DNA of 59,356 nt, counting the filler. It is 5 parts of 5 records of this genome, joined end to end, with 100 filler letters (N's around TTAATTAATTAA, not from the genome) between each part and the next. Parts side by side here need not be neighbours in the genome. Positions count along the whole stretch, not along the records: positions 6,550 to 36,524 come from DRR723986_9067; 4 more parts are not named here. One strand, written 5' to 3'. Shown piece by piece: positions 17,975-51,781 of the stretch. How positions within the stretch are numbered: position 1 is the stretch's first letter; the number at the start of each line of letters is the position of its first letter. Under the pieces are notes generated by a model. That model saw nothing but the letters and a program-made list of their open reading frames with translations, ran no database searches and was not told the DNA's origin. Made by a program: the position numbers and the translations under genes.

Positions 17975-18400
17975 TCAGCATTCTTCACGTAAGCTCGGAC
18001 CGCCAAAATTCGCCTCGTCGTCACTTCCCACCGTCTCGTATTCACTCAGCGCCTCAGCCAGCAGCTTTATCGGAAGGTCGCGACAGTCCTCTGGCGGCAA
18101 AGCATCCTTAGAGCAGCCCAACCCCTGCAGTGAAACTTCCATCGCCTCGGTGGGCGACAAGTTCTCAATATGCTGCATCAGAATGGAAGCGATTCCCTCG
18201 CACGTCGCACAGCCCATCCCGTCAAACCAAGCTTCCTCGATGACACCACGCGCCGAAACGGCAATCTCCAGTTGCAATTCGCACTGCCCATGTTCGCCAC
18301 TGGCACCGCAAGATGGACGATCGCAAGGCCCGCGATGGTAAGGATCTTGAAAGTGGTTTTCGAGAAGTTCGGTAAATTTCACACTACTGGCCTGAGTCAA
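17975..18400 (-). CDS. IscU/SufU/NifU-N-like Fe-S scaffold protein (divergent)
   Basis: LENHFQDPYHRG, EAWFDGMGCATCEGIAS, a C-terminal Cys. Confidence 0.7.
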   Translation of the reverse strand: MTQASSVKFTELLENHFQDPYHRGPCDRPSCGASGEHGQCELQLEIAVSARGVIEEAWFDGMGCATCEGIASILMQHIENLSPTEAMEVSLQGLGCSKDALPPEDCRDLPIKLLAEALSEYETVGSDDEANFGGPSLREEC

Positions 18401-18677: not shown

Positions 18678-18947
18678 ATGGCCGGAGCGATTGTTGACCC
18701 GGAGCAACTGCGCCAATTTGCAGCCATGCTCAAACGATACACTCAACAAGTGCGTGAGTCGACAACTGGGCTGCAACAAGCACAAGCTCGGCTCGCCGAA
18801 ACCTGGCGTGACCAAGAGCACCGAAAATTCTCCGAAGAATTTGACGAGCAAATCAAGTTGGTTAGCAAGCTGCTCGAATCATCCGAGAAGCACATACCGT
18901 ATCTGCTCAAAAAGGCAGAAATCATAGACGAATACTTGCAGCGGTAA
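18678..18947 (+). CDS. WXG100-family protein (W-x-D variant), 89 aa
   Basis: GAGG RBS then ATG 18678. N-terminal IVDPEQLRQFA, central TWRDQ between two amphipathic helices, C-terminal KAEIIDEY; size and layout of ESAT-6/EsxA-like proteins. Confidence 0.8.
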   Translation: MAGAIVDPEQLRQFAAMLKRYTQQVRESTTGLQQAQARLAETWRDQEHRKFSEEFDEQIKLVSKLLESSEKHIPYLLKKAEIIDEYLQR

Positions 18948-18953
18948 TACTCG

Positions 18954-19550
18954 ATGGAGCACAAAGCAAACGTCACTTCGTTCGAACACTTGGTTGAACT
19001 CCACCGTGGGCTAGCCTCGTATCGCGGCCACATGGCCAAGGAGCTCGATGCACTGCAAGTTGAACTGCGGAGGTTGACGAACTGGATCAGCGTTGACGCG
19101 CGACAGTACTGGTCAGGAGAGCTGACCAAGGCGACACGCTTCATGGTCGAATGCCAAGACGCACTCACTCGCTGCCAGTCATATGTCCGCGAAGACGAAA
19201 AACGCCCTTGTACAGAAGAGAAGAAACGGCTCGCGAAGGCCAAAGAACGACGCAAACTGTGCGAACGGATGGTTCGGTGCGCCGCCGCTGCGGCAACTGC
19301 CTGGGAACGTGAACAAATAAAAAACCATTCCAAGACCCAGCGCTTGGCGGATTTGGTCGAGACCGACTTACAGGTTGCTGCCAACCATCTTCAAGGCCAG
19401 ATCGAACTGCTCGACAAATACACTCGCGTTACCAGCGGCGCCGTCACCGCCGAATCCACGACCGATCCAGTCGTTGAAACTGGCGATGCCGATCTGTCTG
19501 ATCCTGAAGACGCGCCGCAGCCACAGGAGACACCCGATGCGCCGAATTAG
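18954..19550 (+). CDS. Helical/coiled-coil protein, extended WXG100-like, acidic tail
   Basis: Starts 6 nt after the WXG100 gene; all-helical heptad pattern, YWSG near residue 46, several Cys. Confidence 0.65.
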   Translation: MEHKANVTSFEHLVELHRGLASYRGHMAKELDALQVELRRLTNWISVDARQYWSGELTKATRFMVECQDALTRCQSYVREDEKRPCTEEKKRLAKAKERRKLCERMVRCAAAAATAWEREQIKNHSKTQRLADLVETDLQVAANHLQGQIELLDKYTRVTSGAVTAESTTDPVVETGDADLSDPEDAPQPQETPDAPN

Positions 19551-19779
19551 TCACGACCTTCCGGGGGTAACCAGTCGAATCAATCGCCGCACACAGCAGC
19601 TTGTCCTTCAAATGGAAGAGACTCAAGAGCACTGGAAAGACAAGAAGGCTCAAGAATTCATGCAACGCCATATTTCAGACGTAGCCCCTTGCGTCAGCCA
19701 GGTAGTGGCGGCAATGCAGAAGTCATGCGAACTTTTTGAAAACATAGCTAAACAATTGCGTGACCCAGACGCACCGTAA
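19537..19779 (+). CDS. Small WXG100-like helical hairpin protein (W-x-D), 80 aa
   Basis: AGGAGA RBS at 19525-19530 then ATG 19537, overlapping the previous gene's end; central HWKDKKAQEF resembles TWRDQEHRKF of the first gene. Confidence 0.7.
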   Translation: MRRISHDLPGVTSRINRRTQQLVLQMEETQEHWKDKKAQEFMQRHISDVAPCVSQVVAAMQKSCELFENIAKQLRDPDAP

Positions 19780-19816
19780 CGTATCGATCAGTACCGTAAC
19801 GTATCGATCAGTACCG
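19773..19816. repeat. 20-bp tandem duplication (2.2 copies)
   Basis: ACCGTAACGTATCGATCAGT twice plus ACCG; the first copy contains the TAA stop of the 80-aa gene. Confidence 0.9.
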
Positions 19817-19875
19817 CCGATCACACAAAATCAACCTACTCTTCTCTTCACTCATCTCGTCGTAGGTCCGAAGCC

Positions 19876-22800
19876 ATGATCAAGTCATCCGCCAAGCCGA
19901 TCACGCGAAACCGGCTGCATCAACTTGTGCGCGGTTTGAAAAGCCGCAGCAATAGCAGCGCCCGCCAGATGGCCGAAGAGATCGATGTTATTCGGGGGCA
20001 ACAGGAACTTGCGAAAGAGCGGCACAAACGCGCCCAGAGTGAAAAGAAGCAGGAATTTGCACTGCAACGAGACCAGCAACTAACCGCCTGGGACGAAAAA
20101 CTGTGCAGCGGCTGGGACAAGGCTGAAGCGACCGTTTACGCCGAAGTTAAAGGCGCAGCATCGAAGACCGCGACGCTTAACAAGACCGCCAAGAGCAATC
20201 GCAGGATGGTCGAAACCGAGGCGCAGCGGAGAACCGAGGCCGCGACAAAGGAATACGAAGAAGCAGCCAAGAAACCAACCGCAACTGCTGCAAAGCTAAA
20301 GCAACATGCAAGCGGCGGGGGCCGCATGCTCACGGAATCACTAAACACAGCGACTTCGGCACTTCTGCAACGTAGCCTGCCAGTGCCCGATGTTGAACCG
20401 ACTGCCCCACAGAATACAGACGCAACATTTGCCTCTTCCGGAGATGCCCTTCGCGAGCTCAAGCGGATCGTCGACGACGCACAAGCTCAATGCCGAAAAG
20501 TCACCCATCAGCCACTCGCCCGGTTCGTGGAATCCCCTTTGTTCTGGGTGATCGGCATGCTGCTGTTCGGCGCGGTCGCCGCCACACTTGTTGCGACCAA
20601 AATCCAAAGCTTGGTGCCTGGCGTTGCCATCGGCGGGGGCGTTTCAATAGCTTACATCGCAATTGGCCTGATCGCCGGTCGCCCATGGCTGAAGAGAGTC
20701 TCGCGAACGCAGATACCGCTGCTCCACCAAGCGATCGCAGATGGAAAACATGCCGCCAGCAAAGCAAACGAGCTGATCGAAAACGAACGAAGCGAAGCCA
20801 TCGCCAAGTTGGCGGCCGTTCGCGACAAGAAGATCAACCAGGTAACGGACTGGAAGACGCAACGACTTGAGGAGATCGAGACCGACCGCGTTACCTATCT
20901 TCAGCAAGTCGAGGAACAAGTTTCCAAGGCCAAGAGTAAGTGGAGCGTGGACCTGGGCTCGTTCTTGGACAAGACCAACACCAACGGGCGTGCCGAAGAA
21001 AAGAAGGCCAACGATGACGCCAATCAAGATCTTGCGCTCATGGAGCAAGAATTCAAGAACGCTCAACAACGGGCCGAACAAGACATCGTTGCGCTCCAAG
21101 AAGGCGGCGTCAACCGTCTGCGGAGGGCCACGGAAAAAGCGGTGACTATTGCCACCAACTGCCAGCAATTCTATGCAGAACAATTCACTGCATGGTCTGA
21201 GATATCAGAACAGAACTGGCCAGAAGAGCTGCAAACGCCCATCCTGCCACTTGGCAAAATCCCGGTTCGAGCCGTCGATATCGATACCCAGGACAGTGGC
21301 GAATCGGCTCAAGTGGTTGAAACTCCTCTATTGTTCAGCCCGCTCAACGACAAATACTTGACCATTCTTGCGGACCCGAGCGCAAATTCAACAATCGAAC
21401 TGGTTCGCAGCCTTGTCTTGCGCTTCCTGACGCACCTGCCCGCGGGAAAAGCGGAGACTTGCGTGATCGATCAACCCGGACTCGGACGAGATTTTGGTTG
21501 GCTAATGCACCTGGCCGACTATGACCCGGAACTCGTTTCCCACCGCGTCTGGACTCAGGAGCAACACATTGGCCGGCAAACGTCAAACCTTGCCCGCGGT
21601 GCAGAGGATTTCATCCAGCAGGCGTTGCGAAATGAATACCCAGACATTGCCGCCTACAATCAGCATGCCGGAGCCCTCGCCGAGCCATTTCGACTTCTGG
21701 TTTGGTCTAGCTTCCCGGATGGTCTTACGGATCAGTCCTGGAAAGCACTGCAGAGCCTACTCGACACCGGTGCACGATGTGGAGTGGTTCCCATCTTGGT
21801 CGTCGATCCCAACTCACCCTGGCTGTCGACAGTCGACGGGAAGAAAGTCCTTCAAAAGGGGCTGCGGATTCGCTTTGATTCCGAGAGCAATGCGTGGCAG
21901 AGTATTGTTGACGAGGAGGCGATCGCCTTCGAACCAGAAGTCTCTCCATCCGAAAAGCAGTCGCAGGAAATCATTTCTCAGGTTGGGCGACGCGCGCTGC
22001 AGGGCAGTCGCGTGGAAGTTCCACTTTCAAAAATGGTTCCCCAGCAAGATGACTGGTGGCAGGGCGATAGCTCTCGGAGCCTTGAGATTCCCGTCGGTCA
22101 AAGTGGTGTTGGACGCACGCACAGCGTGACCCTCGGCCTCGGAACCGCTCAACACGCGATCATCGCCGGTAAGACTGGCTCGGGTAAATCCAGCCTCCTG
22201 CATGCACTCATTACCAGCGCCCTGGTGAAGTACTCTCCGGACCGGCTGCGGCTCGTCTTGCTCGACTTCAAGAAAGGTGTCGAATTCCAAGTCTACTCCG
22301 AAGCCGAGATCCCGCACGCAGACATCATTGGCATTGAAAGCCAGCGCGAGTTTGGATTGAGCGCGCTGGAGTACATCGACGGCTGCTTGAACCGTCGCGG
22401 TGAAGCATTTCGTCAAGCTGGTGTGCAGGATCTGCCAAGTTGGAATTTGATGCATCCAGATGATCAGAAACCTCGAATGCTATTGGTGATCGATGAATTC
22501 CAAGAGCTATTTGTCGAAGATGACCGCCTAGGCCAGCAAGCAAGTCTGATTCTGGATCGAATCGTTCGCCAAGGTCGTTCGTTTGGTGTTCACGCCGTAC
22601 TAAGTAGTCAGACTCTGTCCGGTTCCTACGCGTTGCCTCGTACCACTCTCGGGCAAATGGCGGTTCGCATTGCACTGCAGTGCGACGCGGCAGATGCAAA
22701 CATCATCTTCACCGACGACAATCCCGCCGCGGCTCGACTGAAGCATCCCGGCCAAGCGGTTTACAACGACGAGGGGGGACGCATCGAAGGCAATCAGCCA

Positions 22801-23778
22801 ATGCAAATCGGCTGGCTGGCTAACGCCGAGCAGAAGCAGTGGCTTGGCGAGATGGAGAACGGCTATCAGAACGGGGACGCCACTACCAACGCGCTGGGAC
22901 GGACAGTCGTCTTCGATGGAAACCGCCCAGCAACTTGGGATGCCGCTAACGCCGACCTGGCAATTGAAAGAAGCAAGGCCGAAGAAAACCCAGATGCGAT
23001 TTGGTGTGTTGCTGGCGAAAGTGTTGCTATCAGCCCTGCGGTATGCTTCCCGCTGACCAACCAGCCCGGACGTAACGTAATGCTCGTTGGTGCCAGCGAC
23101 GCTCAGGCGTCGGCGACGATGACAAGCATTGTGGCAAGCTGGTCACGCCAGAGTGGCGACAAGGCTAATGCAGAGCTGTTCGCCGTACAGGGAGCTCGGC
23201 CCGTTGACCGGCATGCCAACCAGCTACCTAAACTTTGGGAGGGGACGGCTGGAAATGTGAACGTGTTCGATACCAGAACGGCCGCTGATGCGATTACCCA
23301 AGTTCACGAAAAACTAAAATCCCGAATCGATCGGGACTCTGGTGACGAGGCAGAATCCAGCGGCAATGACAGCACGCCCATTCTATTGACACTGCTCCAA
23401 TTGGGACGGCTAAGAGACTTAAGAAGCGAAGACGAGTTCAGTTTCGGCGAGTCGAGTTTAACGCCTGACAAAATGCTGGAAGAGATCTTGCGTGATGGCC
23501 CCGCTCAGGGAATTCACACCGTCCTTTGGTGTGATTCAGCATCCACGCTTGGCAGATGGCTGTCGCGGTCGATGATGCGCGAGATTGAAATTCGCTTACT
23601 GATGCAAATGAGTGCCAATGACTCTACCAATTTGGTGGAATCGGTGACGGCGAATCGGCTGGGCGAGCAACTCATGCTGGCCTATGACGAGGCGTCGGGA
23701 ATCGAACAAAAATTTCGTCCGTTCCGCACCGACGACCTTGGGCAAATCATTGCTTGGGACGCAAAAGACGCAGACTGA
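19876..23778 (+). CDS. Membrane-anchored FtsK/SpoIIIE ATPase, EssC/EccC-like
   Basis: Coiled coils, two TM helices (FWVIGMLLFGAVAATLV; VAIGGGVSIAYIAIGLI), HAIIAGKTGSGKS, LLDFKKGVEF, LLVIDEFQELF, RQGRSFGVH, with degenerate ATPase-like modules on either side. Confidence 0.88.
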   Translation: MIKSSAKPITRNRLHQLVRGLKSRSNSSARQMAEEIDVIRGQQELAKERHKRAQSEKKQEFALQRDQQLTAWDEKLCSGWDKAEATVYAEVKGAASKTATLNKTAKSNRRMVETEAQRRTEAATKEYEEAAKKPTATAAKLKQHASGGGRMLTESLNTATSALLQRSLPVPDVEPTAPQNTDATFASSGDALRELKRIVDDAQAQCRKVTHQPLARFVESPLFWVIGMLLFGAVAATLVATKIQSLVPGVAIGGGVSIAYIAIGLIAGRPWLKRVSRTQIPLLHQAIADGKHAASKANELIENERSEAIAKLAAVRDKKINQVTDWKTQRLEEIETDRVTYLQQVEEQVSKAKSKWSVDLGSFLDKTNTNGRAEEKKANDDANQDLALMEQEFKNAQQRAEQDIVALQEGGVNRLRRATEKAVTIATNCQQFYAEQFTAWSEISEQNWPEELQTPILPLGKIPVRAVDIDTQDSGESAQVVETPLLFSPLNDKYLTILADPSANSTIELVRSLVLRFLTHLPAGKAETCVIDQPGLGRDFGWLMHLADYDPELVSHRVWTQEQHIGRQTSNLARGAEDFIQQALRNEYPDIAAYNQHAGALAEPFRLLVWSSFPDGLTDQSWKALQSLLDTGARCGVVPILVVDPNSPWLSTVDGKKVLQKGLRIRFDSESNAWQSIVDEEAIAFEPEVSPSEKQSQEIISQVGRRALQGSRVEVPLSKMVPQQDDWWQGDSSRSLEIPVGQSGVGRTHSVTLGLGTAQHAIIAGKTGSGKSSLLHALITSALVKYSPDRLRLVLLDFKKGVEFQVYSEAEIPHADIIGIESQREFGLSALEYIDGCLNRRGEAFRQAGVQDLPSWNLMHPDDQKPRMLLVIDEFQELFVEDDRLGQQASLILDRIVRQGRSFGVHAVLSSQTLSGSYALPRTTLGQMAVRIALQCDAADANIIFTDDNPAAARLKHPGQAVYNDEGGRIEGNQPMQIGWLANAEQKQWLGEMENGYQNGDATTNALGRTVVFDGNRPATWDAANADLAIERSKAEENPDAIWCVAGESVAISPAVCFPLTNQPGRNVMLVGASDAQASATMTSIVASWSRQSGDKANAELFAVQGARPVDRHANQLPKLWEGTAGNVNVFDTRTAADAITQVHEKLKSRIDRDSGDEAESSGNDSTPILLTLLQLGRLRDLRSEDEFSFGESSLTPDKMLEEILRDGPAQGIHTVLWCDSASTLGRWLSRSMMREIEIRLLMQMSANDSTNLVESVTANRLGEQLMLAYDEASGIEQKFRPFRTDDLGQIIAWDAKDAD

Positions 23779-23824: not shown

Positions 23825-24694
23825 CTAAGCGCTTTGCAGCACACACGCCTTCAACGTGTTGTCTAGTAGCATCGCAATGGTAAGCGGCCCAACACCACCG
23901 GGAACCGGAGTGATGTATTCCGCAACTGGTTCTAAGCCATCGAAATCAACATCGCCGACGAGCCCATCGTCGGTGCGATTGATACCGACGTCGACGACCA
24001 CGGCACCGGGCCGAACCATTTCTGGTGTGATCAGTTTTGCGACGCCGACTGCCGCAACGAGAATGTCGGCCTGCTTAGTGATACTTGCCAGGTCTTTGCT
24101 TTGCGAGTGACAGACGGTCACGGTCGCGTTGGCATACTCTTTTCCAAACCCAATGTCGCGGGCGACCAACATGTTTGCCAGCGGCTTGCCGACAATGTCA
24201 CTGCGTCCCACGATGACAACATGCTTACCGGCCAACGGAATCTTGTACCTGGCAAGTAGCTGAACAACTCCATGCGGCGTACACGGCAAGAATCGCGGCC
24301 GTCCTTGAACGAGCAGACCAACATTTTCGGGCGCGAAAGCATCAACGTCCTTAAGTGGAGCTACTGCATCCAGAATGCGTTGCGTGTCCAACTGCTTCGG
24401 AAGTGGCAGTTGCACCAGAATGCCGTTGACTGTCGCATCAGAGTTGAGCTGATCCAGCAACTCGAGGAGTTGTTCGGTTGTCGAATCGCCAGGCATGCGA
24501 ACGAGTTGACTTGCAATGCCCGCTTTCTCGCAGGCCCGTTCCTTGTTGCGCACGTAAACTTGGCTAGCCGGGTCGTCGCCTACGAGCACGGCAGCCAGTT
24601 TCGGCTGAGGCTTTCCGGCCTCGGTCCAAGACTTCACCCGCTCAGCAATTTCGGTACGAATTTCTTGTGCGATGCGTTTTCCGTCGAGCAACAT
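23825..24694 (-). CDS. folD: Bifunctional methylenetetrahydrofolate dehydrogenase/cyclohydrolase
   Basis: ASQVYVRNK, GILVQLPLP, PCTPHG, GRSDIVGKP, TPVPGGVGPLT. Confidence 0.97.
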   Translation of the reverse strand: MLLDGKRIAQEIRTEIAERVKSWTEAGKPQPKLAAVLVGDDPASQVYVRNKERACEKAGIASQLVRMPGDSTTEQLLELLDQLNSDATVNGILVQLPLPKQLDTQRILDAVAPLKDVDAFAPENVGLLVQGRPRFLPCTPHGVVQLLARYKIPLAGKHVVIVGRSDIVGKPLANMLVARDIGFGKEYANATVTVCHSQSKDLASITKQADILVAAVGVAKLITPEMVRPGAVVVDVGINRTDDGLVGDVDFDGLEPVAEYITPVPGGVGPLTIAMLLDNTLKACVLQSA

Positions 24695-24836: not shown

Positions 24837-24844
24837 CGCACATG

Positions 24845-24928
24845 TGCCCAGGACTGGAGTTGAACCAGCAAGGGGTTGCCCCCACAACGACCTCAACGTT
24901 GCGCGTCTGCCAATTCCGCCACCTGGGC
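24845..24928 (-). tRNA. tRNA-Leu(GAG)
   Basis: Acceptor stem GCCCAGG/CCTGGGC, D-arm GGCGGAATTGGCAGACGC, anticodon stem CAACG/CGTTG with loop TTGAGGT, long variable arm, T-loop GGTTCAACTCC; CCA not encoded. Confidence 0.95.
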
Positions 24929-28285: not shown

Positions 28286-30379
28286 CTATTCGCCGCCGTC
28301 TGCGCTGCTTTTTCCGGGAGTTGGCGGAGCCGCTGCCTTGGGACGAGAAACCTTGGGACCAGCAGGTCGTTCACCACCAGCTTCATCTCCTTCAGCCTGC
28401 TCGCCTTTATCCTTCTCGCCTGAAGTCGCGTCAGCTTCGTCGCCATCCTGTGCAGGCTCCTTCGCAGGTGCTGGTGGCACAGGAGCGTCGCCCGATTCTG
28501 GCTTGGCTACACTTATTGGAGCCGCACCAGTCGCGTCTGAATCCGGTGCTTCCCCTTGCTCGGGAACAGCGTTGTTGCCATCATCGCTGGGTGCGTCTTG
28601 GCGAGAATCAGCTTGAGCGTTCGATGCATCAACAGCATCATCATCAGAAGGCACTGCCTCTTCCAAGTCGCGTTTCGCATCGGTTTCATCACTGGTGTCA
28701 ACAGTGCCACCCTGCATGGACTGTTGTAGATTGACCAGCGCGTTAGACTTGCTGAGCATTTCGTCTAAGAAATTTCTGTTTGGATATTTTGTAGTCCAAG
28801 CCGAAATCACAGACATCATTGCAGGATCTGCAAGGTCACTGTCGTAGGTCTCTCGAAACTTCATGAAGTCGGCCAGAATAAAGTCTTCTGGCAGTTCACT
28901 ATCAAGCAGCCGCCGGTATCGCTCGATCGATTTGAGGACATCATCCCCAGCGTCGTCGTCAACCATGACCGGCGGATACTTATTGAACAGCGCGTTCCAG
29001 TTTTCCCAGGCAATCTCATATTGCTCCAAGGCTTTATCGAGTTCACCTTTTTCAAGCAGTTCATTCGCCTGATACATACTTGTGCGGGCAAGCAATGCTT
29101 CCTCTTCCTGTTCCGCCACGCAGCGGGTCTCCCAATAACCAAAATTGATTTGGTTTCGATAGATTTCAATGTGCGTGATGTGCTCCTTGGCAAAAACCAG
29201 CTCGTCGGCCATCTTCAACGCCTTCACTCGCTTATCAGCGGGCACTTGCTTTGCAACGGCTTTTGGCGGAATAAACAACTTAGACGAAACGGACTCGGCG
29301 AGCATCACTTGCTGGAAGTCGCGTTCGATTTGCTCTGTTTCCCATGCCTCGATTTCTTCTTCAGTCAGTTTCGCCTTCGCATTGTTGACGAATGACTGAT
29401 AAGTCTCACCGCAGAATTCCTCAAACTCTTTCTTGCGTTTCGCGTAGTCTTGATTGGCTTTCTCAAGTTCTTTCAGGTAGATGTCATCACCAAAGGAGGT
29501 CCGAATGAGCCGACTGCCGAAGTCGGTCCAACCTCGCTCGGCACGTTTCCAGCCATTGCGGGCTGCGTCCGTAAAGTAGCCTTCGGTTTGGATGCCTTCG
29601 CAGTACTTCATCAGCCAAGTTGGTCCCATGCGATAGAACATCATCTGGCTTTTCGCGGGACGCATTCCGGCTTCTGCCATGTCATACGCACGCTGGTACC
29701 AAAGCGTCCCTGCAAGCCAGTTGTCGGGCTTTCCGTCTGGACCTAAACCGGCCGCTTGTCGCAGATCCATCGTCGACGATTCGTAGACTTCGTTGTGATA
29801 GTCCTCGTCGTTACGAAACAGTTCGCGGTACTGCTCTTTCTCGTCAGCAACGCCCATTTTGTTGCCAAAGAACCAACCAAGCTCGTACGGCATCTCCGTA
29901 CGCTTCTTGTTGTACTTAGATCCTTGGATCAGGTAGTCGATACCCCGCTTCACCCATTGGTAACGCTGCCGGTAGTCATCAAACTCGCTTGAGACGTTGT
30001 AGGACATGTTGTGCGACTGGAATTCCCACACTTTGACGAAGTGAGGTTGAAGCACGGCGATCTGCTTGAGCGTTGCACTGAACCGGTCCCAGTTCTGCTT
30101 CTTCTTGTAGTCGACGGCCTTTTGCCAAAGGATCGTCGAGGCGACTCCGCGCAGTCCCAGCGTAGCCAAACGCATCGACTCGCTGGCAGGGTCAATCTCG
30201 CCCAAATCCCCCTGGCCAAGGCTGTATTCGGTTCGTATTTGCGCCAGAACACCACCGGGCTGCTGGACATTGCCATCGCTCTTGCGGACCGACGGGTTCC
30301 CCAGGAAATACAGGGGTACCAACAGCAATACAATAGCGCAGATATAGAGCAGGCGTCGTTGTAAAACGTTTACGTTCAT
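28286..30379 (-). CDS. Membrane-anchored helical/TPR-like protein with acidic low-complexity tail
   Basis: N-terminal TM, LQPHFVKVWEFQSHNMSYN, TPR-like C-terminal helices; 4-nt overlap with the ABC permease. Confidence 0.7.
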   Translation of the reverse strand: MNVNVLQRRLLYICAIVLLLVPLYFLGNPSVRKSDGNVQQPGGVLAQIRTEYSLGQGDLGEIDPASESMRLATLGLRGVASTILWQKAVDYKKKQNWDRFSATLKQIAVLQPHFVKVWEFQSHNMSYNVSSEFDDYRQRYQWVKRGIDYLIQGSKYNKKRTEMPYELGWFFGNKMGVADEKEQYRELFRNDEDYHNEVYESSTMDLRQAAGLGPDGKPDNWLAGTLWYQRAYDMAEAGMRPAKSQMMFYRMGPTWLMKYCEGIQTEGYFTDAARNGWKRAERGWTDFGSRLIRTSFGDDIYLKELEKANQDYAKRKKEFEEFCGETYQSFVNNAKAKLTEEEIEAWETEQIERDFQQVMLAESVSSKLFIPPKAVAKQVPADKRVKALKMADELVFAKEHITHIEIYRNQINFGYWETRCVAEQEEEALLARTSMYQANELLEKGELDKALEQYEIAWENWNALFNKYPPVMVDDDAGDDVLKSIERYRRLLDSELPEDFILADFMKFRETYDSDLADPAMMSVISAWTTKYPNRNFLDEMLSKSNALVNLQQSMQGGTVDTSDETDAKRDLEEAVPSDDDAVDASNAQADSRQDAPSDDGNNAVPEQGEAPDSDATGAAPISVAKPESGDAPVPPAPAKEPAQDGDEADATSGEKDKGEQAEGDEAGGERPAGPKVSRPKAAAPPTPGKSSADGGE

Positions 30380-32178
30380 GCTGCCGCGATCTCACGAGTC
30401 TTGAGGAAGAAATAAGCGATCGTGCATGTCAACACAAAATAAGCGAGCGTCATAGTTATATGCCTCGCCAACAATCCACCGAATATATCAAATCCATAGG
30501 CCACGTATTCGGCAGTGTTGAACTGGCCGAAGCTTGGAATGGCCTGGAAGACAGAGTAGAGCGTCCACATCAGTCCTGCGTCGGTAATCTTGATGGCTTT
30601 TTCCAAAGTTGGATTACCAAGGTCAAGTTCAACCATTGCACCAGTCTGCAGCGGAATACGAATGAGCGATTCGATGGGACCTCCACCAGGCGTTTCGCCA
30701 GTTGCAACGCCGAGTGCGATGCTGCCGAAGAATCCGAGCATCAAGCATGTCAGGGTTGCGACCATGGCAACAGGTCCGGACAGGAAGGTACTGAACATGA
30801 CTCCGAGGCAGATGATCAACACCATCTGCATCCACAGGCCTATATAGCCTTTGAACATGTTCCAACCGAACGTACTGTCACCGACTCGCAAATACAAGTC
30901 AGCAGGGGCCATACCAAAGTACTGCGATGGGTCGGTGCACCTGACAACGATCTCAACTTTGCCGTCTTCGACCAAGTTGTCGAAAATGTCGACTTCTTGA
31001 GGTTCACCGTCGATAACACCAGGAAGCTTCCGTGGAACAAATTTCTGGTCGACGGCGAACTCTTTGACAATGAAGCCGATAGGATTTGACTCGGCAGAAC
31101 CGCTCGGGCTACGCAGGAAGAACTCACCTTGGACACCAGTGACGATGTCGCCCTTGAAGGTACGGAATGCCTTCAAGCTCATTTCTAGCATGATCTCGTC
31201 GGGATTCGAGAACTGCCGTTCGCCGATACCCTCAAACGTCCATATGGCGGACATCAACGAGTTGCCCTCGATATATTGCTGGTAATCGTCCTCGTAGCCA
31301 ACGTTCAGTCCAACGCCCTCGTTGCCACTCCGGTCGGTGAATCGCAAGTCGCCGAACTTCGGAATTCGTGCATCAAGCAAGCCTTCAGGTGGACCAACTT
31401 CATAAACAAGTTGCCCGTCGACCATCTCGGCGGTGACTTTGTGGATGTGCCCCTTTTGCTCGTCGGTCGTGCCGACATAAGTCCCATCCTCTTGCTCGCG
31501 AATCGTAAACTCGTGAGAGTGAGTCGCGTCGTAGGATGTCTGTCCGGTCAAGCCAGAACCGGGCTCGATCTCATGCGCGTGTTCAATACCGCGATAGACG
31601 AATACGTAGCTAAGTACCCCCATAACAAGCAGTAGCAACGTGCCTACTGCCGTGAAACCGAGCACTCGTCCGAGCACGATTTCGGTGCAGCGAACGGGCT
31701 TGGTGGTGATCGTCTGGATAGTCTTGGTTTTGATGTCTGTCGGCAAGCTGAAGCAGCTTAGGAAAAGGCCGAGCAGCAATAGCAAGTAGCTCGTACCAGT
31801 CATTACGAAGCTGATATATAACTGAGCGACGTTGTCGGCACCGGGATCAAGGAACCACCCGGCAAAGAGAAGCACGACGATAAAGACGGCCATCACGACC
31901 AGGACGCGTCGTCGAATCGCCTCCTGAAACGCTAACTTGGCAAGTGCGAATGTGCGTCGAAGGGATGTGCCTGGGATGTCGCGTGCGATCAGCTCGTATA
32001 CGACACGGGTCACATTGTAGAACGCTTCACCGGGGCCGTTGCGAGCCATCGAAACCAGGAAGCAAACTACAAAACCGAGCAGGGCGACGACGCAGGCGAC
32101 AACGACGCCTTGCAGCAAGCCGAATTTGTAGATGAGCCACTCGAAGTAGCCCCACATCTGATCTTGTTCGATACGCAT
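30376..32178 (-). CDS. ABC-2-type transporter permease with large extracytoplasmic insertion
   Basis: AFQEAIRRR, LPTDIKTKTIQTITTKPVRCTEIVLGRVLG, C-terminal FFLKTREIAA; His-rich insert. Confidence 0.85.
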   Translation of the reverse strand: MRIEQDQMWGYFEWLIYKFGLLQGVVVACVVALLGFVVCFLVSMARNGPGEAFYNVTRVVYELIARDIPGTSLRRTFALAKLAFQEAIRRRVLVVMAVFIVVLLFAGWFLDPGADNVAQLYISFVMTGTSYLLLLLGLFLSCFSLPTDIKTKTIQTITTKPVRCTEIVLGRVLGFTAVGTLLLLVMGVLSYVFVYRGIEHAHEIEPGSGLTGQTSYDATHSHEFTIREQEDGTYVGTTDEQKGHIHKVTAEMVDGQLVYEVGPPEGLLDARIPKFGDLRFTDRSGNEGVGLNVGYEDDYQQYIEGNSLMSAIWTFEGIGERQFSNPDEIMLEMSLKAFRTFKGDIVTGVQGEFFLRSPSGSAESNPIGFIVKEFAVDQKFVPRKLPGVIDGEPQEVDIFDNLVEDGKVEIVVRCTDPSQYFGMAPADLYLRVGDSTFGWNMFKGYIGLWMQMVLIICLGVMFSTFLSGPVAMVATLTCLMLGFFGSIALGVATGETPGGGPIESLIRIPLQTGAMVELDLGNPTLEKAIKITDAGLMWTLYSVFQAIPSFGQFNTAEYVAYGFDIFGGLLARHITMTLAYFVLTCTIAYFFLKTREIAAA

Positions 32179-45548: not shown

Positions 45549-48500
45549 TCACTCGGTCACCTCCCGCCAGTAAATGATACGGTCGTGGCCGCGGTAGACG
45601 CCGAAGGTGGCCACCCCTGACGGGTCGCCCAGTGAACCGTCACCGTCATAGTCTCCCTGTAGCCAGACCGGCACCGGAAAACTGACCCTGACGTCCCCCC
45701 GGTTTGGCTCGCCTGGCGCCGCCAGAACAACCTCACTGCCCGTGGCCGAGCCTCCCATATCCATCGTCCCCGAGACCGGCACAACCGAGGTACTGCCCCC
45801 GGAGAGGCCTGACTGATCCAGAGTGACACTACCCGTGTTGTAGCCCCAACAACTGTCCGCCAGATTCCGGGTGAAGCCGGCTGCCGTGTAATGATCAATC
45901 TGGAGCGGCATTGCCAGATTAACGGTTTCCGGGCCGTATACATTCTCCAGTTGCAGCCTGCCGTATCGCAATTCGAAGTTCATAACGGGTGCCAAATTCG
46001 TTGGCAACAGCGGCGCTGTCACGCTGTCTGCATCCTGCAGCTGTGTCAGTTCAATGGCATAGTCCGGTGTAAACGGCGACACCCTCGTCTGTACCGTCTT
46101 GTCATAGGTAATCTCATCCGATGAAGAGAACCGATATTGCAACTGGCCTCGCCCGATCACGGACAGAGTCGGATTGGCGAGACTCGTGCTGACAGGAAAG
46201 GGAGCGCCGTTAGCTTCCAGGGCACTGTTATCGGCTGCACCGGGCGTTCGCACAAGACTGCCTGGCGACAGCCGCTGGAAATCACCCAGGGTATAATTCC
46301 GTGTGACGGCGCCACCCACAGTCAGGGCCTCCACCAACACCGTGGGTTCGGTGCCGATCAACCATTCGAATGGCCGGCCGATATAGGAAAACGCGGTAGA
46401 AATGTCGCAAAAAGCCTCGATCTCACCCGGCTCCGTAATCGTGACGCCAAAACGGTCGGGAACGAAACGCCCCACATGGCTGACCGCGTTACCAATGACA
46501 TCAGCGGTGCCCAGATAACCACCACTGGCCAGTTCAGGAGTAATGCTGATGATGCCCACCTCTGGCCACTGGAACTGACCGCAGGCAGTGCCGCCTGCGG
46601 CCGCGGCGCCGTTGCAACCCTGAGCAAAGTCGCCGAAGGAGCCGGAAAGTGCGGGACTGTCTCCACCCGATGGCGCGACGAGAGAGGCCTCCAGCACTAC
46701 GTCTTCAGAGGGCGTTTCCTGTCCAAAATTTGGCGTCACATTACCGCTGGCATTGATAGACGATACCCGAACCTCGAAATCATCACCGGCCGCTACAAAC
46801 GCATTATCGTCCTGAACCGAGGTCGCTGCCGGATTACCCGGAATCGTCAGTTGGAAGTGATCCGGGCGAGCAACAAATTCTCCATCGCCTACCATCTCCA
46901 GGCCTGCATCATCGCCCGAGCCTTCGTACCGTGCGTTGAGACGGACCCACCCAACATCGGGGTATCGAATACTCACCGTTGCCAAGCCATTGGCATCAAA
47001 GAACAGTGGCTTGGTTCCTGTGACAAAGGAAGGTAACTCGTTGCCATCTTCATCTAATATCACACTCTGACTACCAGAAGACGGGTTGATGTAGGAAGAC
47101 CAAAGTGCAATGTCTTTCGTTTCCTCGTCAAATCCGGGAACACAGCGCTGGGTGCTGTCATCCTTGCGTACCGCCGCGATACTGGCCGTCACAACTGTGT
47201 CCGCAATATGATCCGGCACCGTAATATCGAATCCCGAATCAAAGAACGTCATCTCACATTGATCAGCCGCCAAGGTGCCGGAACCGTTATCACACAGGGT
47301 CTTCGAGAATGCCACCGTCCCCGGGTCTGACGAAGGGACCCCCAAAGTAACGGTGCCTGGCGAGGTAATCGCCAACGAGCGAGTGGTCTCACCATTCATG
47401 ATGAAGGTCTCTCCCCCTGCCCAGCCGGAGGGAGACAAAGTCACTTCCACAGGATCAGGGAAGAAAGCGTTGCAGGCCGGATCGTCGCAGGCGCGAATTC
47501 TCACGGCTTCCGGCTTACAGGTCAGGCCACTGCCACTGTGAATGATCTCGAAGTGATCCACTCGTCGCTGAATTTCGCCCACCTTGTCTGCGCAGGTTTC
47601 CAGACCATCGAGCTCATGAATGTTAGTTGAGCCACCTGTGGAGCCGGTTAGAGATAAAAACAGATTCTCCGGAACATCCGCTTGCTGACCAGTGAGTGTT
47701 ACCGCGATGATTTCCTGATAGTTGGCGCCCGTAGCGGTGATGTCTCTTTCAACCCGGAGGAGAGGGAGAGCACCTCGTGAATCGATGGTTATCCGGTAAC
47801 GATGAGGGGAGTTTTTACCGGTCGCATCGATGCCCGGAGATAAGGATTCGGAGCCTGCGATATACTGATAATTCAAATCTGCAGCGCCGCGCACCGCCAC
47901 AGAGTCAAGAGTTCGTCCAGGCCGACCTCCTTGTCGTCCCTCACTCCTGTTCGAAAAGTTTCCGTACTCATCAATACCAATACCAAGCCAACCTCCGGCG
48001 AATCCGCCGGTTCCATCTGGCTCCTGAGCATAGCCGAGCGAGCCACCATAGCCACCCGCCTGCGGTGTGATTGAGGCATCAGAGAAAACGATCGCGATTC
48101 CATCGGCGCCATTTCCATCGTAGGCGTAGTAGTCGAATTCGATCTGGATCAGGTTATCTGCACCGGGGAACAACCGCTGCAAACTGACCGCTGTCGCCTG
48201 ATTTCTTGCGGCTTCAGTCAGCCTGAGCCTTCCTCCAACAATATCAGGCCTGAAACTCCCCCTGGAGACGGAAGTGGCCCAGTCATCAGCGTTAAGATTC
48301 CCGCCAGAGAAGTCTTCGCTGAAGCAGATTGCCGGCTTAGGATCTTCAACAGTGTAGGTGATTCGCACCCGTCCGGAAGCTCCGTTCCCGCCATTTGCAG
48401 ACAAACAGACGAGAAAGCTACAGGCGGCACCACCTCCACCACCTCCAGGCACACGTCCAGATGCCCCACTGCCTCCGGAACTGCCATTTCCGCCGGCCCC

Positions 48501-49085
48501 ACCTTCAGCTACAACGTTACCGCCCGAGCTCCCTGAGCCGTCGTTTCCCTCAGATCCAGAGCCTGCGGAACCACCACCGCCGCCGCCACCTCCAGAGGCG
48601 TTAGCGCCTCGGCCACCACTGAACACTGTGCCACCAACACTGGAGGCCGAACTTCCACCAGATCCACCTGACGCATTGTTATTGTTTACGCCAGCACCAC
48701 CCTGTGCGAGCAAGGTTGCCGGGCTGCCAAACCAGGAACTGTCGCCATCGGCCGAATTGCTTCCACCGGAACCGACCCGGTAGACAAAAGTCTGGCCAAC
48801 TGAAACCCCAAACGACCGGGAAGCATACGCGCCTCCACCACCGCCACCAGCCTCCACGCCGCCTCCGAAGAGAGGCCGGGAAACCGACCCACCACTACCA
48901 CCACCACCCCAAACCTCAACCGTGATGGATCGAACGTTGGCCGGAACCGTAAAGGAACCATTACCAGGAGAATCGAACTCCACAACCTGTTGAGCCTGGA
49001 GCGATAAGGAGACAAGTGAAAACAGCAACGCCAAAAGCAACAAGCTTTGGGTTTTCATAAACGTCCGTGACATGGTCCGATTCAT
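45549..49085 (-). CDS. mshQ: MshQ-like pilus adhesin (Gly-rich domain, L-type lectin-like domain, MshQ C-terminal region)
   Basis: Signal peptide; C-terminal LRYGRLQLENVYGPE and ATFGVYRGHDRIIYWRE; last gene of the msh operon. Confidence 0.82.
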   Translation of the reverse strand: MNRTMSRTFMKTQSLLLLALLFSLVSLSLQAQQVVEFDSPGNGSFTVPANVRSITVEVWGGGGSGGSVSRPLFGGGVEAGGGGGGAYASRSFGVSVGQTFVYRVGSGGSNSADGDSSWFGSPATLLAQGGAGVNNNNASGGSGGSSASSVGGTVFSGGRGANASGGGGGGGGSAGSGSEGNDGSGSSGGNVVAEGGAGGNGSSGGSGASGRVPGGGGGGAACSFLVCLSANGGNGASGRVRITYTVEDPKPAICFSEDFSGGNLNADDWATSVSRGSFRPDIVGGRLRLTEAARNQATAVSLQRLFPGADNLIQIEFDYYAYDGNGADGIAIVFSDASITPQAGGYGGSLGYAQEPDGTGGFAGGWLGIGIDEYGNFSNRSEGRQGGRPGRTLDSVAVRGAADLNYQYIAGSESLSPGIDATGKNSPHRYRITIDSRGALPLLRVERDITATGANYQEIIAVTLTGQQADVPENLFLSLTGSTGGSTNIHELDGLETCADKVGEIQRRVDHFEIIHSGSGLTCKPEAVRIRACDDPACNAFFPDPVEVTLSPSGWAGGETFIMNGETTRSLAITSPGTVTLGVPSSDPGTVAFSKTLCDNGSGTLAADQCEMTFFDSGFDITVPDHIADTVVTASIAAVRKDDSTQRCVPGFDEETKDIALWSSYINPSSGSQSVILDEDGNELPSFVTGTKPLFFDANGLATVSIRYPDVGWVRLNARYEGSGDDAGLEMVGDGEFVARPDHFQLTIPGNPAATSVQDDNAFVAAGDDFEVRVSSINASGNVTPNFGQETPSEDVVLEASLVAPSGGDSPALSGSFGDFAQGCNGAAAAGGTACGQFQWPEVGIISITPELASGGYLGTADVIGNAVSHVGRFVPDRFGVTITEPGEIEAFCDISTAFSYIGRPFEWLIGTEPTVLVEALTVGGAVTRNYTLGDFQRLSPGSLVRTPGAADNSALEANGAPFPVSTSLANPTLSVIGRGQLQYRFSSSDEITYDKTVQTRVSPFTPDYAIELTQLQDADSVTAPLLPTNLAPVMNFELRYGRLQLENVYGPETVNLAMPLQIDHYTAAGFTRNLADSCWGYNTGSVTLDQSGLSGGSTSVVPVSGTMDMGGSATGSEVVLAAPGEPNRGDVRVSFPVPVWLQGDYDGDGSLGDPSGVATFGVYRGHDRIIYWREVTE

Positions 49086-49492
49086 CGGGTGCGAACCTCC
49101 ACTATCCTTATGGCCTGATCCAGGCCACTGCCACATTGCCCCGTGCTTTTAATTGAAAACACCGTATCGCCTCCGGGGCCTTTGATATCGGCAGCTATCG
49201 AGGCGCAGACTACCGACGCACTGCAGCCGTTCAGGGCCGAAACAGTAAAACTCAATGATGCATTCACCGCACTGCAGCTGCCGCCCTCCAGCACATCCCT
49301 GACCGCCACCTGGGCGCCACTTTCCGCCGCGAAGAACGCCCGCTGGGACTGTATCTGCAGGCTTACCGCCTGCCCGCTACTCTCCTGCAACTGCGCCATG
49401 CCCACTACCAGCAGGGCCAGTACCGTAATAATAAACAGCGCCACCGGGAGACCAGCACCGGTCTCCCGGCCGAGACAAGAATCAGGGCACAT
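49082..49492 (-). CDS. mshP: MSHA biogenesis protein MshP (PilX-like)
   Basis: G/AGLPVALFIITV leader, RAFFAAESG; lies between mshO and mshQ. Confidence 0.8.
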   Translation of the reverse strand: MCPDSCLGRETGAGLPVALFIITVLALLVVGMAQLQESSGQAVSLQIQSQRAFFAAESGAQVAVRDVLEGGSCSAVNASLSFTVSALNGCSASVVCASIAADIKGPGGDTVFSIKSTGQCGSGLDQAIRIVEVRTR

Positions 49493-50252
49493 TGCGGATC
49501 TGCACCTCCTGGCTAACCGTAGTGGTCTCATCACCCTGGGGGTCCTTCAAAGTAAAGGTGAACTGCACGATTGCCGCACGCCGAAAACTGGGTGGCGTGT
49601 ATCGGAACTGGGCCGTGCCGGCAAGATTGGCCGATAGAATCTGAGGCGTCACCGACGGGGGAGTTGGCTGTGTAGTCGATGGGGCATAGCCGCTGTAGCG
49701 GTATAGAAACTGACCGCTCTGGCACAGGCTGACAGGCTGCGCCACCACGAAGAGCCGACGCTGCGGTGACCGTTCCCCAAAACGATGATTCGCGCCAAGG
49801 TTAATCTGAGCTGGAGAAACTAAATTGTCGATGCTGGCGATGGTTGGCGATACGGGTCCCGGACTGGCACTGCCATAGAGTGAATCCGCAGAGGTGCCAT
49901 AACCATAGACCACCGCCCGGGTAGATCCACTGGGGGGCGTATTAGCAAACGGTGCTATGGCGATCGTGTTGCCGCCACCGGGAAGATCGGTGTAGGCCGT
50001 GCCTGCCTCAATTGGCAGCCATTCCAGACAATTGCCCGCAACGCGAATGGATAACGGGAAGGCTTCCCGAAGTTCCCGGCTTATCTGTTCACTGATCACC
50101 ACGCCCTGCAAAGCGCGCTGCTGTCGGGCGCTAACGTCAATCGCACCACGGGTGGAGAGGGCGACGAACTGCACGGAAATGGTCGCCACAATAGCCAAAA
50201 GTGCGATGACAATGACCAGCTCAACCAACGTGAATCCTGCTGCCCTTCGCAT
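49482..50252 (-). CDS. mshO: MSHA minor pilin MshO
   Basis: AG/FTLVELV, SRELREAFPLSIR, C-terminal QEVQIRNVP. Confidence 0.85.
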   Translation of the reverse strand: MRRAAGFTLVELVIVIALLAIVATISVQFVALSTRGAIDVSARQQRALQGVVISEQISRELREAFPLSIRVAGNCLEWLPIEAGTAYTDLPGGGNTIAIAPFANTPPSGSTRAVVYGYGTSADSLYGSASPGPVSPTIASIDNLVSPAQINLGANHRFGERSPQRRLFVVAQPVSLCQSGQFLYRYSGYAPSTTQPTPPSVTPQILSANLAGTAQFRYTPPSFRRAAIVQFTFTLKDPQGDETTTVSQEVQIRNVP

Positions 50253-50740
50253 CAGTAATTCGCTCGGTAGGCGGTGAAGCGGTAGTCATTGGCGGACGGA
50301 TCGGTGATGGTGATATCGATCCGCTTGGCCTCATCGGAGGGCAGCCCTACTTCGGTGCCCGCACAGGTTACAGTGATGGAAACCTGAAAGCCGGGGTATT
50401 GGCTGCCAAGGGAGCCGCCCTGCGCATTGGCAGGCAATGCGTTGTTGATCGCGTTGTAGTCATCCACATCGTTGTAATCCTCACGCTGTGACTCTTCCGT
50501 GTCGATCTTGCAGCCAGTTTTCTTTGGAACGCCCCCAGGCAGGCTCTCGTCATCGTACTTTCGAGACAGCACCTCATCCATGTAGAACTGTGCCAAGGCA
50601 ATTGCCCGGGTCTGGTTGAGCGGATCGGCACTGCGCCCGGCAATCAGGGAGAATGCCCCGACGACACCGGCAATGGCAACACTGATAATAACGATGGCCA
50701 TGACCAGTTCCACCAGTGTAGCTCCACGTTGGACATGCAT
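50252..50740 (-). CDS. mshD: MSHA minor pilin MshD
   Basis: QRG/ATLVELV, SADPL, YNDVDDY, C-terminal AYRANY. Confidence 0.85.
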   Translation of the reverse strand: MHVQRGATLVELVMAIVIISVAIAGVVGAFSLIAGRSADPLNQTRAIALAQFYMDEVLSRKYDDESLPGGVPKKTGCKIDTEESQREDYNDVDDYNAINNALPANAQGGSLGSQYPGFQVSITVTCAGTEVGLPSDEAKRIDITITDPSANDYRFTAYRANY

Positions 50741-51186
50741 CAGCACGGCCCCCGGTAAATCGCCCCAAGTGGGCTCAGGCAAACCCGAAAAGTGGATTCG
50801 CCGGAAAAGGTGAACTGAACGGTATTACCCGAGGTTTCCGGACGGCCAAAATAATCAAAGGTAATGGGAAAGGTGGTTCCGGTGACCGACAGGGAGGTCC
50901 CGCCGCTGTCAATCCGGAAAGGCTCCCTTGAGCCCACGGTAAACAGGAATTCGTTGGCGGTCGATGTCACGTTCAGCGTGTTCTGGGTGGTGTTACCCGC
51001 CAGCGCTGCCTGCTGGGCAAGCAGCGTGGCGGATTCCAGTTGCTGGGTGGCCAGCAAAGGGGAGAAGGCCGAGCTCCTGGCGAACAGGCCAATACCTATG
51101 GCGGAGAGTACTCCAATCAGGATGATGACGGTCACCAGCTCGACTAAAGTGAACCCCGACTCACAACCAGATACTCTCCGTCGCAT
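50740..51186 (-). CDS. mshC: MSHA minor pilin MshC
   Basis: SG/FTLVELV prepilin motif, ITFDYFGRP; gene order. Confidence 0.78.
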   Translation of the reverse strand: MRRRVSGCESGFTLVELVTVIILIGVLSAIGIGLFARSSAFSPLLATQQLESATLLAQQAALAGNTTQNTLNVTSTANEFLFTVGSREPFRIDSGGTSLSVTGTTFPITFDYFGRPETSGNTVQFTFSGESTFRVCLSPLGAIYRGPC

Positions 51187-51271
51187 ATGATCACCGGCAC
51201 CGTCGTGGGCTAACTCAGGACCGCGCTGAAAAGCTGTGAGCCTAGACCACGTCGCCCCAAGTTCTTGCCGT

Positions 51272-51742
51272 TTATTCGCAGGTGTCATCTAATGATGAAA
51301 CCAGCCCCGTCAGTTCTGAATAGCTGAAGCTACAGTTGGGAACAACGGTGGTACCGTCTGACTCCAGAAGAGAAATCGTAACCACGTTGGATGCTTCCGT
51401 TCCAACCTGGAATTCGTCGCTCAGCTGCGCCGCGACATCAACCCCCCCGGTGGTAGCGGTTGGATATCCGTTAGTCGTATCCATATCAACAGCTACACCG
51501 TCGAGATTCACACTAGCAGCCGAATTCCCGTCCGCTACCCATCTTGCATGTGCGATTGAGGCGGCCGAACGAACAGACCCTGCTGCCCCATTAATTGCGG
51601 CCGCCTTCGCGTCAGTACCAAAATCAGCAAACCTTGGCAAAGCAAACGCCGCCAGAATGCCCAGAATCACAATCACCATAACCAGTTCGATCAGGGTGAA
51701 ACCTTTCTCTTTACGTGCTGCGATTGCTGTCATTGAATTCAT
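51272..51742 (-). CDS. mshA: MSHA major pilin MshA
   Basis: KG/FTLIELVMVIVILGILAAFALPRF, NGYP, C-terminal Cys pair; gene order. Confidence 0.8.
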   Translation of the reverse strand: MNSMTAIAARKEKGFTLIELVMVIVILGILAAFALPRFADFGTDAKAAAINGAAGSVRSAASIAHARWVADGNSAASVNLDGVAVDMDTTNGYPTATTGGVDVAAQLSDEFQVGTEASNVVTISLLESDGTTVVPNCSFSYSELTGLVSSLDDTCE

Positions 51743-51781
51743 CCTATTACTCCGTTTATTGCGTGTAGATATCTGCGTTTA

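Follow-up and report, generated by a model that had tools for sequence, protein, structure and literature searches.

The stretch of DNA analyzed here (the window) comprises 59,356 nucleotides, filler included, and joins five parts from five records of one genome end to end, with 100 filler letters between each part and the next; positions 6,550 to 36,524 come from DRR723986_9067. Within that part lie four co-oriented genes, here called A to D, which encode two small proteins of WXG100 (A) and WXG100-like (C) type, a protein predicted to form a long helical hairpin (B) and an ATPase (D) whose nearest likeness is the EccC/EssC motor of type VII secretion systems (T7SSs) (Table 1). A preliminary description of the letters had taken the set for a minimal T7SS-like operon, and our gene calls agree with it on the gene lengths, the spacings (6 nt between A and B, a 14-nt overlap of B and C, 96 nt between C and D) and the opposite-strand iscU-like and folD flanks. 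The GC content is flat over the A to D region (0.54–0.56). The nearest relative is an uncultured Pirellulaceae contig (L001) with identities of 96% for A, 72% for B, 88% for C and 73% for D, in keeping with the planctomycete-like origin proposed earlier. Against this contig, synonymous sites are saturated (proportion of synonymous differences, pS, 0.77–0.89) and the nonsynonymous proportion (pN) is 0.02–0.17 across all four genes, so A, B, C and D are genuine genes under strong purifying selection and not products of chance. As the preliminary description had said, no toxin, immunity or mobile-element gene is seen beside the module in the window, and no promoter or terminator around it is convincing, with scores at chance level.

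Table 1. The four-gene module, its internal features and its flanking genes, in window positions (aa, amino acids; TM, transmembrane)
Feature	Positions	Strand	Description
Gene A	18678-18947	+	89 aa; WXG100-family, W43-R44-D45 motif, HP0062-like, no C-terminal tail
Gene B	18954-19550	+	198 aa; predicted hairpin of two long helices with a disordered acidic tail; putative LXG/PPE-like carrier
Gene C	19537-19779	+	80 aa from ATG 19537; divergent WXG100-like paralogue of A, W33-x-D35
Gene D	19876-23778	+	1300 aa; EccC/EssC-like ATPase, two TM helices, three RecA-like domains
TM helix pair of D	20539-20676	+	residues ~222-241 and ~247-267, from hydropathy scan
Middle-domain catalytic motifs of D	22168-22587	+	Walker A 765-772, Walker B 869-874, R/Q-G-R 898-901
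Tandem duplication	19773-19816	+	perfect 20-bp unit, 2.2 copies, covering the C stop codon and C-D spacer (Tandem Repeats Finder)
IscU/SufU-like flank (NifU_N, PF01592)	17975-18400	-	E 8e-9; divergent, outside the module
folD flank	23825-24694	-	PF02882 and PF00763; convergent, outside the module

By profile and motif, A is a WXG100-type protein and C a divergent, WXG100-like paralogue of it. A passes PF06013 with 33.2 bits against a cut-off of 27.3, and a profile of 38 relatives has as its best match in the PDB the Helicobacter pylori protein HP0062 (3fx7/2gts, E ~1e-9), with EsxA and EsxB at 4e-5 or weaker. W43, R44 and D45 are invariant in all 38 relatives, and it is this W-R-D that A has in common with HP0062, instead of W-x-G. 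In C, W33 and D35 are likewise invariant (27 of 27 relatives), and the central W-x-G of the WXG100 family is thus absent from both proteins, W-x-D standing in its place in 38/38 and 27/27 sequences. The C protein of the window gives no PF06013 match itself, only TIGR03930 at E 0.02; 14 of its 27 relatives do match PF06013 at E ≤ 0.1, the best at 3e-5, and profile comparison matches A to C with a similarity of 67%. No hydrophobic TM segment was seen in A, B or C in a Kyte-Doolittle scan. Besides its full cassette (L008), one genome (G002) has a solitary additional copy of A (L003, 115–381) adjoining an M28 peptidase gene.

B is a different kind of protein. AlphaFold models it (pLDDT 88) as helices 8–76 and 87–166, about 70 and 80 residues long, followed by a short acidic disordered tail; the hairpin of ~160 residues is too long for the WXG100 size of ~100 residues, and the conserved W44 and W53 lie inside the first long helix, leaving the turn (77–86) without Trp. 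The preliminary description had counted three WXG100-like proteins with a central Trp and looked for three WXG100 hairpins: A and C keep their place in that count, although with W-x-D as their motif, and B does not; the PF06013 match holds for A and not for B or C of the window, and the expected fold is supported by the profile matches of A to the HP0062, EsxA and EsxB structures and contradicted by the length of B. No Pfam or NCBIfam family covers B; a search of cluster representatives gives 564 relatives. Residues 1–42 are similar to helix 1 of A by hhalign (89%, as against ≤20% for reversed controls). Cys74 and Cys86 flank the turn, and among 96 relatives two Cys are found in 54, one in 22 and none in 20, against a background of 1%. 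Foldseek gives no match to the B model at E ≤ 0.001, and a wide fold search returned generic hairpins only (best Z 10.7, with many ties), with no LXG, PPE or EspB chain among the matches listed. A complex prediction of A, C and residues 1–168 of B scored 0.78 in three runs and 0.00 and 0.00 in controls with B replaced, but a control with A replaced scored 0.80, so the prediction does not discriminate.

The C-terminus of B is variable among its relatives. Of 150 long relatives listed, 35 were scanned: 5 end in an Imm33-like domain (4 above the cut-off), 1 in an SsdA-type deaminase domain and 29 in no family above the cut-off. The Imm33-like fusions (P0243, P0263, P0206, P0210 and P0249) have an immunity-type domain at the place expected of a toxin, and the SsdA-type deaminase fusion is P0197. 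In an Atlas cluster of 433 members, mostly planctomycete, 64% are Imm33-like (score 0.83), which we treat as a lead only. Other members of the family may be noted here: L128 (7055–8077) encodes a B with a similarly long tail, and at L075 (10276–12078) B is in frame with a conserved downstream gene of 395–440 residues that has no Pfam family, the same family being a separate gene after A-B in L041, L046, L061 and L073.

D consists of an N-terminal helical region, a pair of TM helices joined by a loop of ~6 residues (Kyte-Doolittle), a second helical region and three RecA-like domains, of which the first (~455–710) and the third (~1040–1300) are degenerate and the middle one (~735–980) is intact. 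PF01580, proposed earlier as a check, matches residues 732–915. Among NCBIfam models, EccCa (TIGR03924) reaches 107.8 bits and FtsK (PRK10263) 27.4, the cut-off of TIGR03924 being 509 and all T7SS models lying far under their cut-offs on D. The order is the same with phmmer (EccC 4nh0 5e-28, FtsK 2e-10, TcpA 1e-6) and with Foldseek (EccC 6e-30, FtsK 6e-16, TcpA 3e-12) run on a model of residues 440–1300, which shows three alpha/beta RecA-like domains at pLDDT 90.7. By hidden Markov model, sequence and predicted fold, D is therefore closest to EccC/EssC and not to FtsK or coupling proteins, and the preliminary description was right to keep it apart from DNA translocases. It lacks the marks of that group: the FtsK gamma and alpha domains have no Pfam match on D, its likeness is not best to FtsK or TcpA, it is not a single motor, and a separate canonical FtsK is encoded besides D in the genomes of five out of five relatives. 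FHA, the N-terminal domain of EssC in T7SSb, has no Pfam match on D at E ≤ 1, and TIGR03928 matches residues 724–961 only. Exactly one Walker A motif, in the middle domain, is present in each of the 58 aligned D sequences, and Walker B is intact; the R/Q-G-R motif (898–901) presumably holds the arginine finger, as in the FtsK family. Judged from these motifs, only the middle RecA domain is catalytically intact. The earlier picture of an EssC/EccC-like ATPase with two TM helices thus stands, with the correction that D has three NTPase-like domains, one of them intact, against four in the EccC/EssC of Gram-positive bacteria.

The four genes travel together without always lying together. Searches with A found 80 loci, nearly all planctomycete and some cut at contig ends, with A-B-C-D at 32 of them, A-B at 34, A alone at 12, and A-B-C and A-B-D at one each. 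In 38 of the 40 genomes without D at the A locus, an orthologue-level D lies elsewhere; G019 has none and G009 only an FtsK-level match. Each of the three junctions is split in some genome (A|BCD in G005, A|BC|D in G001, AB|CD in many genomes, A|B|CD in G031), which disposes of a fixed pairing of A with B and C with D as a rule. In G031, a single 10.8-Mb contig, A lies at 2.20 Mb, B at 1.82 Mb and C with D at 6.21 Mb. The order A-B-C-D was kept in 17 of 20 distant regions fetched, and no recurrent neighbor that might be a fifth gene was found in 20 distant loci. One candidate, a TPR gene, immediately precedes A in 25/80 loci from several Pirellulaceae clades (including L068, 9079–9990) and is absent beside the 20 distant cassettes; in a family sample of 81 genomes, 46 have both it and D, 12 the TPR gene only, 6 D only and 17 neither, so it is associated with the module and not an obligatory component. 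Neighboring fatty-acid desaturase, sufS/sufU and M28 peptidase genes were also considered as components and reflect lineage-specific synteny only. The IscU/SufU-like gene adjoins A in 9/80 loci, and folD is present in 0/80.

Across the phylum the module is patchy. An even set of 301 Planctomycetota genomes was searched separately with A, B and D, and each was found in 39 genomes, the identical 39 with the centre genome among them, nearly always in single copy; by coordinates, the cassette is together in 25 of these, A and B lie apart from D in 3, all three lie apart in 10, and 1 is ambiguous. The searches scored 3 to 17 candidates per genome and carry no completeness values, and kin share traits, so 39/301 is a lower bound and the overlap does not amount to 39 independent events. 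A single B locus was found in 23 of 24 genomes and in each of the 39 carriers, and D is present in 52/81 genomes of the family sample. The synteny looked for in the preliminary description is therefore real, with the complete order at 32/80 A loci and in 25/39 carrier genomes. The module is not phylum-wide (39/301 sampled) and is often split over several loci.

Trees of D and RpoB were compared for 30 genomes (those with RpoB loci of 41 searched), using FastTree and no formal topology test. They share 20 of 27 splits, with a Mantel rho of 0.63 that none of 999 permutations equaled. Conflicts are mostly on deep branches; one that is well supported concerns G041, the closest relative of the window, and within the Pirellulaceae-like clade (19 genomes) 2 splits conflict, one of them strongly. 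This mostly vertical inheritance agrees with the earlier view of a locus embedded in the core genome. A cassette of another type was seen in G309 (L123, 7371–16692, G309:C3), which also has an ordinary A-B-C-D cassette (L124): this island-type second copy has a different gene order, namely D, two A-like genes, then B-like, C-like, vWA and DnaJ-TPR genes, and adjoins PLD and sigma54-activator genes. The C-terminal domain of its B-like protein gives ParB-like leads that stay under the naming threshold.

Canonical accessory parts were sought in the genomes of five relatives. EccB (PF05108) and EccD (TIGR03920) were found in none of the five (Corynebacterium control positive), nor was any of EssB/YukC, EsaA and EsaB/YukD (Bacillus subtilis control positive; EssA was not searched), as the preliminary description had supposed for EccB/EccD and EssB/EsaA. 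EccE and MycP gave no match in Pfam scans of the window, and no genome-wide search was aimed at them. LXG (PF04740) was absent from all five genomes, with a working control, and PF06013 has one match in each. The identical carriers of A, B and D, the tracking of RpoB by D in most splits and the want of canonical parts in the five relatives together define a co-dependent, mostly vertically inherited module with a patchy distribution across the phylum, no mobility in this lineage and no toxin here. Even where the genes have scattered, A, B and D are kept all together or not at all, which argues that the products work together, in a role other than the delivery of polymorphic toxins.

A class of this kind is already in print (PMC3482391, PMC4978471). 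According to note 6 to Table 1 of PMC3482391 (2012), planctomycetes are one of the lineages in which solo WXG domains accompany a distinct YueA-like ATPase; this ATPase has three HerA/FtsK domains, of which the middle alone is active, and the paper calls such sets mobile T7SS versions. The locus has the traits of this class, namely three such domains in D with only the middle one intact (activity again taken from motifs), linked stand-alone WXG genes and a diderm, planctomycete host; it differs in having the long hairpin B and a second WXG-like gene, neither of which appears in that note. "Apparently mobile" is the authors' reading and not a defining trait, and it does not describe the locus: the Pirellulaceae module is single-copy, shares 20/27 splits with RpoB and is often dispersed, and so does not behave as a mobile element, L123 being the island-type second copy. 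PMC4978471 regards WxG together with FtsK as a minimal set for a T7SS and cites HP0062 and HP0066 by name. Among solved structures A is nearest to HP0062, with the shared W-R-D, and the H. pylori pair also has a diderm host and no accessory T7SS genes named in that text; in contrast, the H. pylori clusters it describes adjoin nuclease, DnaK-like or TerY-P genes, none of which recur at the planctomycete module.

Among the canonical systems, T7SSa (ESX) supplies the best sequence and fold match for D, EccC of T. curvata (4NH0), which shares a TM hairpin followed by tandem RecA-like domains and the company of two different WXG100-type genes. The EccC of T7SSa has a TM pair and four NTPase-like domains, whereas D has three and a helical region of ~220 residues before its TM pair; the small proteins have W-x-D and not W-x-G, and EccB and EccD were not found in the five relatives. 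In T7SSb, the LXG-Lap-Lap tripartite export signal, as described in the sections of PMC10801868 we consulted, resembles the module in combining a long helical hairpin of variable C-terminus with two small WXG100-like genes. It differs in that B has neither an LXG match nor L-x-G, no toxin/immunity gene lies at the locus and D has no FHA match; EssB, EsaA and YukD were not found in the five relatives, and an A-B-C trimer would be an analogy with that signal. The subtypes T7SSc to j, in the part of 10.1101/2024.01.30.577966 available, all belong to Gram-positive bacteria, and each has four NTPase domains and at least five components; they share with the locus the ATPase and WXG100 as universal core, and a four-gene diderm form is not among the subtypes described there. 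In its genes, then, the locus resembles the T7SS core and belongs to the class of 2012 (PMC3482391), and falls outside both T7SSa and T7SSb. Three points are new here: genomes have either all of A, B and D or none of them even where the genes are scattered, the range is patchy, and B may be read as a carrier whose cargo slot varies. In the literature searched, which covers few subscription journals, we found no functional study of the diderm type with WXG100 and a three-domain ATPase, as the preliminary description had also stated; WXG or type VII is not mentioned in the text and supplement searched of a transposon-directed insertion-site sequencing study of P. limnophila (PMC10632474), nor do the V. 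spinosum supplements seen (PMC12283558) contain such terms.

We lean, with slightly better than even confidence, toward a minimal, domesticated type VII-like export module in which D carries A, B and C, folded as a bundle, into the periplasm. D would sit in the inner membrane by its TM hairpin and oligomerize like EccC; the middle RecA domain, whose motifs are intact, would hydrolyze ATP, and the degenerate domains may serve as scaffold and substrate dock, as in EccC. A and C would pack on the long B hairpin to give a folded helical rod, much as two Lap proteins pack on an LXG domain, and D would move this rod, which has no signal peptide, into the periplasm, the likely destination since no outer-membrane part is seen. 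The C-terminus of B would be a cargo slot, filled by a toxin-like or immunity-like domain in some relatives and by a short acidic tail only in this lineage. Because the slot holds just that tail, the exported rod itself would most likely serve an envelope role, perhaps one that is conditionally useful rather than one that kills neighbors, and this is the step of which we are least sure. For export we count the EccC-like D beside a true FtsK (5/5), the WXG100-type A and WXG100-like C, the shared 39/301 carriers, the single copy of B (23/24 genomes), its WXG100-like start and variable C-terminus, the ParB-like lead in L123, the precedent of the LXG-Lap-Lap signal and the shared splits of D and RpoB.

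A number of points weigh against export. The tested accessory membrane components of T7SSa and T7SSb are all missing in the five relatives, no outer-membrane step is evident, and we know of no characterized T7SS that works with the ATPase alone. No secretion data for this class of module were found in the literature searched, and D has three NTPase-like domains against four in the Gram-positive systems covered by the part of 10.1101/2024.01.30.577966 at hand. A stops 3 residues past Y86 and fits the WXG100 C-terminal pattern (PMC3935865) only in part, by eye. Only helix 1 of B resembles A, its middle part reaching 1% and its last helix 6% in hhalign; B has no LXG Pfam match (PF04740) and neither L-x-G nor W-x-G at the turn, and the Cys pair there is not universal (54/96). 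B tails are ≤100 residues in 95 of 98 hits (planctomycete loci, some hits duplicated), so there is usually no visible cargo. Kinship among the carriers, and linkage of the genes in 25/39 of them, make the co-occurrence of A, B and D look stronger than it is.

Some of these points would suit a machine that moves nothing across the membrane. D could remodel or recycle A-B-C bundles on the cytoplasmic face of the inner membrane, in membrane stress, in scaffolding an extensive inner membrane or in signaling, and the accessory channel components not found in the five relatives, the mere ~6 residues of D that face outward beside two long cytoplasmic helical regions, the single copy, the vertical inheritance and the usual want of a cargo domain in B all fit. 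The long hairpin of B, of a generic kind seen in many membrane-associated coiled coils, fits as well but is non-specific. We nevertheless consider a non-secretory role rather unlikely: both conserved parts of the T7SS core, WXG100 and the EccC-like ATPase, have been retained, the Cys pair at the tip of the B hairpin is enriched over the 1% background, and the toxin-like and immunity-like C-termini of B relatives make most sense if B exits the cell. Those same C-termini raise the question of whether the cassette is the export core of an active conflict system whose substrates, toxins or immunity proteins with B-like N-termini, have their genes at other loci. The fusions to SsdA-deaminase and Imm33-like domains, the 433-member Atlas cluster (64% Imm33-like, a lead), the island-type cassette L123 and the patchy distribution (39/301 and 52/81) would agree with this, but the B profile matches at a single locus in 23/24 genomes and in 39/39 carriers, PF06013 has a single match in each of the five genomes and LXG none, and no neighbor gene recurs in the 20 distant loci, which makes such a system improbable.

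The identity of the motor bears on a further proposal, that D is a DNA translocase, a coupling protein or a defense ATPase of HerA, SspH or MADS type and that the small genes are regulators. D is a motor of the FtsK superfamily, and PADLOC reports SspH at 5e-20 and mad8 at 8e-19; both matches are confined to the middle domain, however, the E-values for EccC are lower than those for FtsK and TcpA by 14–22 orders of magnitude, the gamma and alpha domains of FtsK have no Pfam match on a protein that coexists with a canonical FtsK in 5/5 genomes, and no mobile or defense context is seen in the window. We regard this as very improbable.

Beyond export of the bundle by D, a bolder form of that reading seems to us possible, if short of probable: D and the three helical proteins would be a complete Sec- and Tat-independent translocase of the diderm inner membrane, B would found a new LXG/PPE-like carrier family, and planctomycetes would have domesticated a former toxin-delivery device, its slot emptied and its function turned to the envelope. 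If true, no type VII machine that works would be smaller, and the EccC/EssC ring alone would suffice as channel. A natural four-gene version in a non-pathogenic, genetically tractable phylum would allow a direct test of that idea and of what accessory subunits contribute. The class has been in print since 2012, so the locus is less a discovery than a good test case.

Smaller features of the window complete the description. The 20-bp tandem duplication is missing from the C-D spacer of L001 (69 nt, compared with 96 nt in the window) and is probably a recent neutral duplication. A tRNA-Leu(GAG) gene lies at 24844–24928, 1 kb downstream of D and past folD, with no integrase among the long open reading frames scanned. 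At 28286–32178, two large open reading frames (697 and 600 residues) without a Pfam or NCBIfam match adjoin an ABC ATPase and an MMPL gene. A DUF6701 protein followed by several prepilin-type genes occupies 45549–52318, which is unexpected in a planctomycete; we take the set to resemble the mannose-sensitive hemagglutinin-type pilus genes known mainly from gammaproteobacteria. Finally, 52860–58454 encodes a protein of 1864 residues with FG-GAP, beta-propeller and Ig-like domains and a C-terminal FlgD-Ig domain, in a stretch of lower GC content (0.49–0.52).

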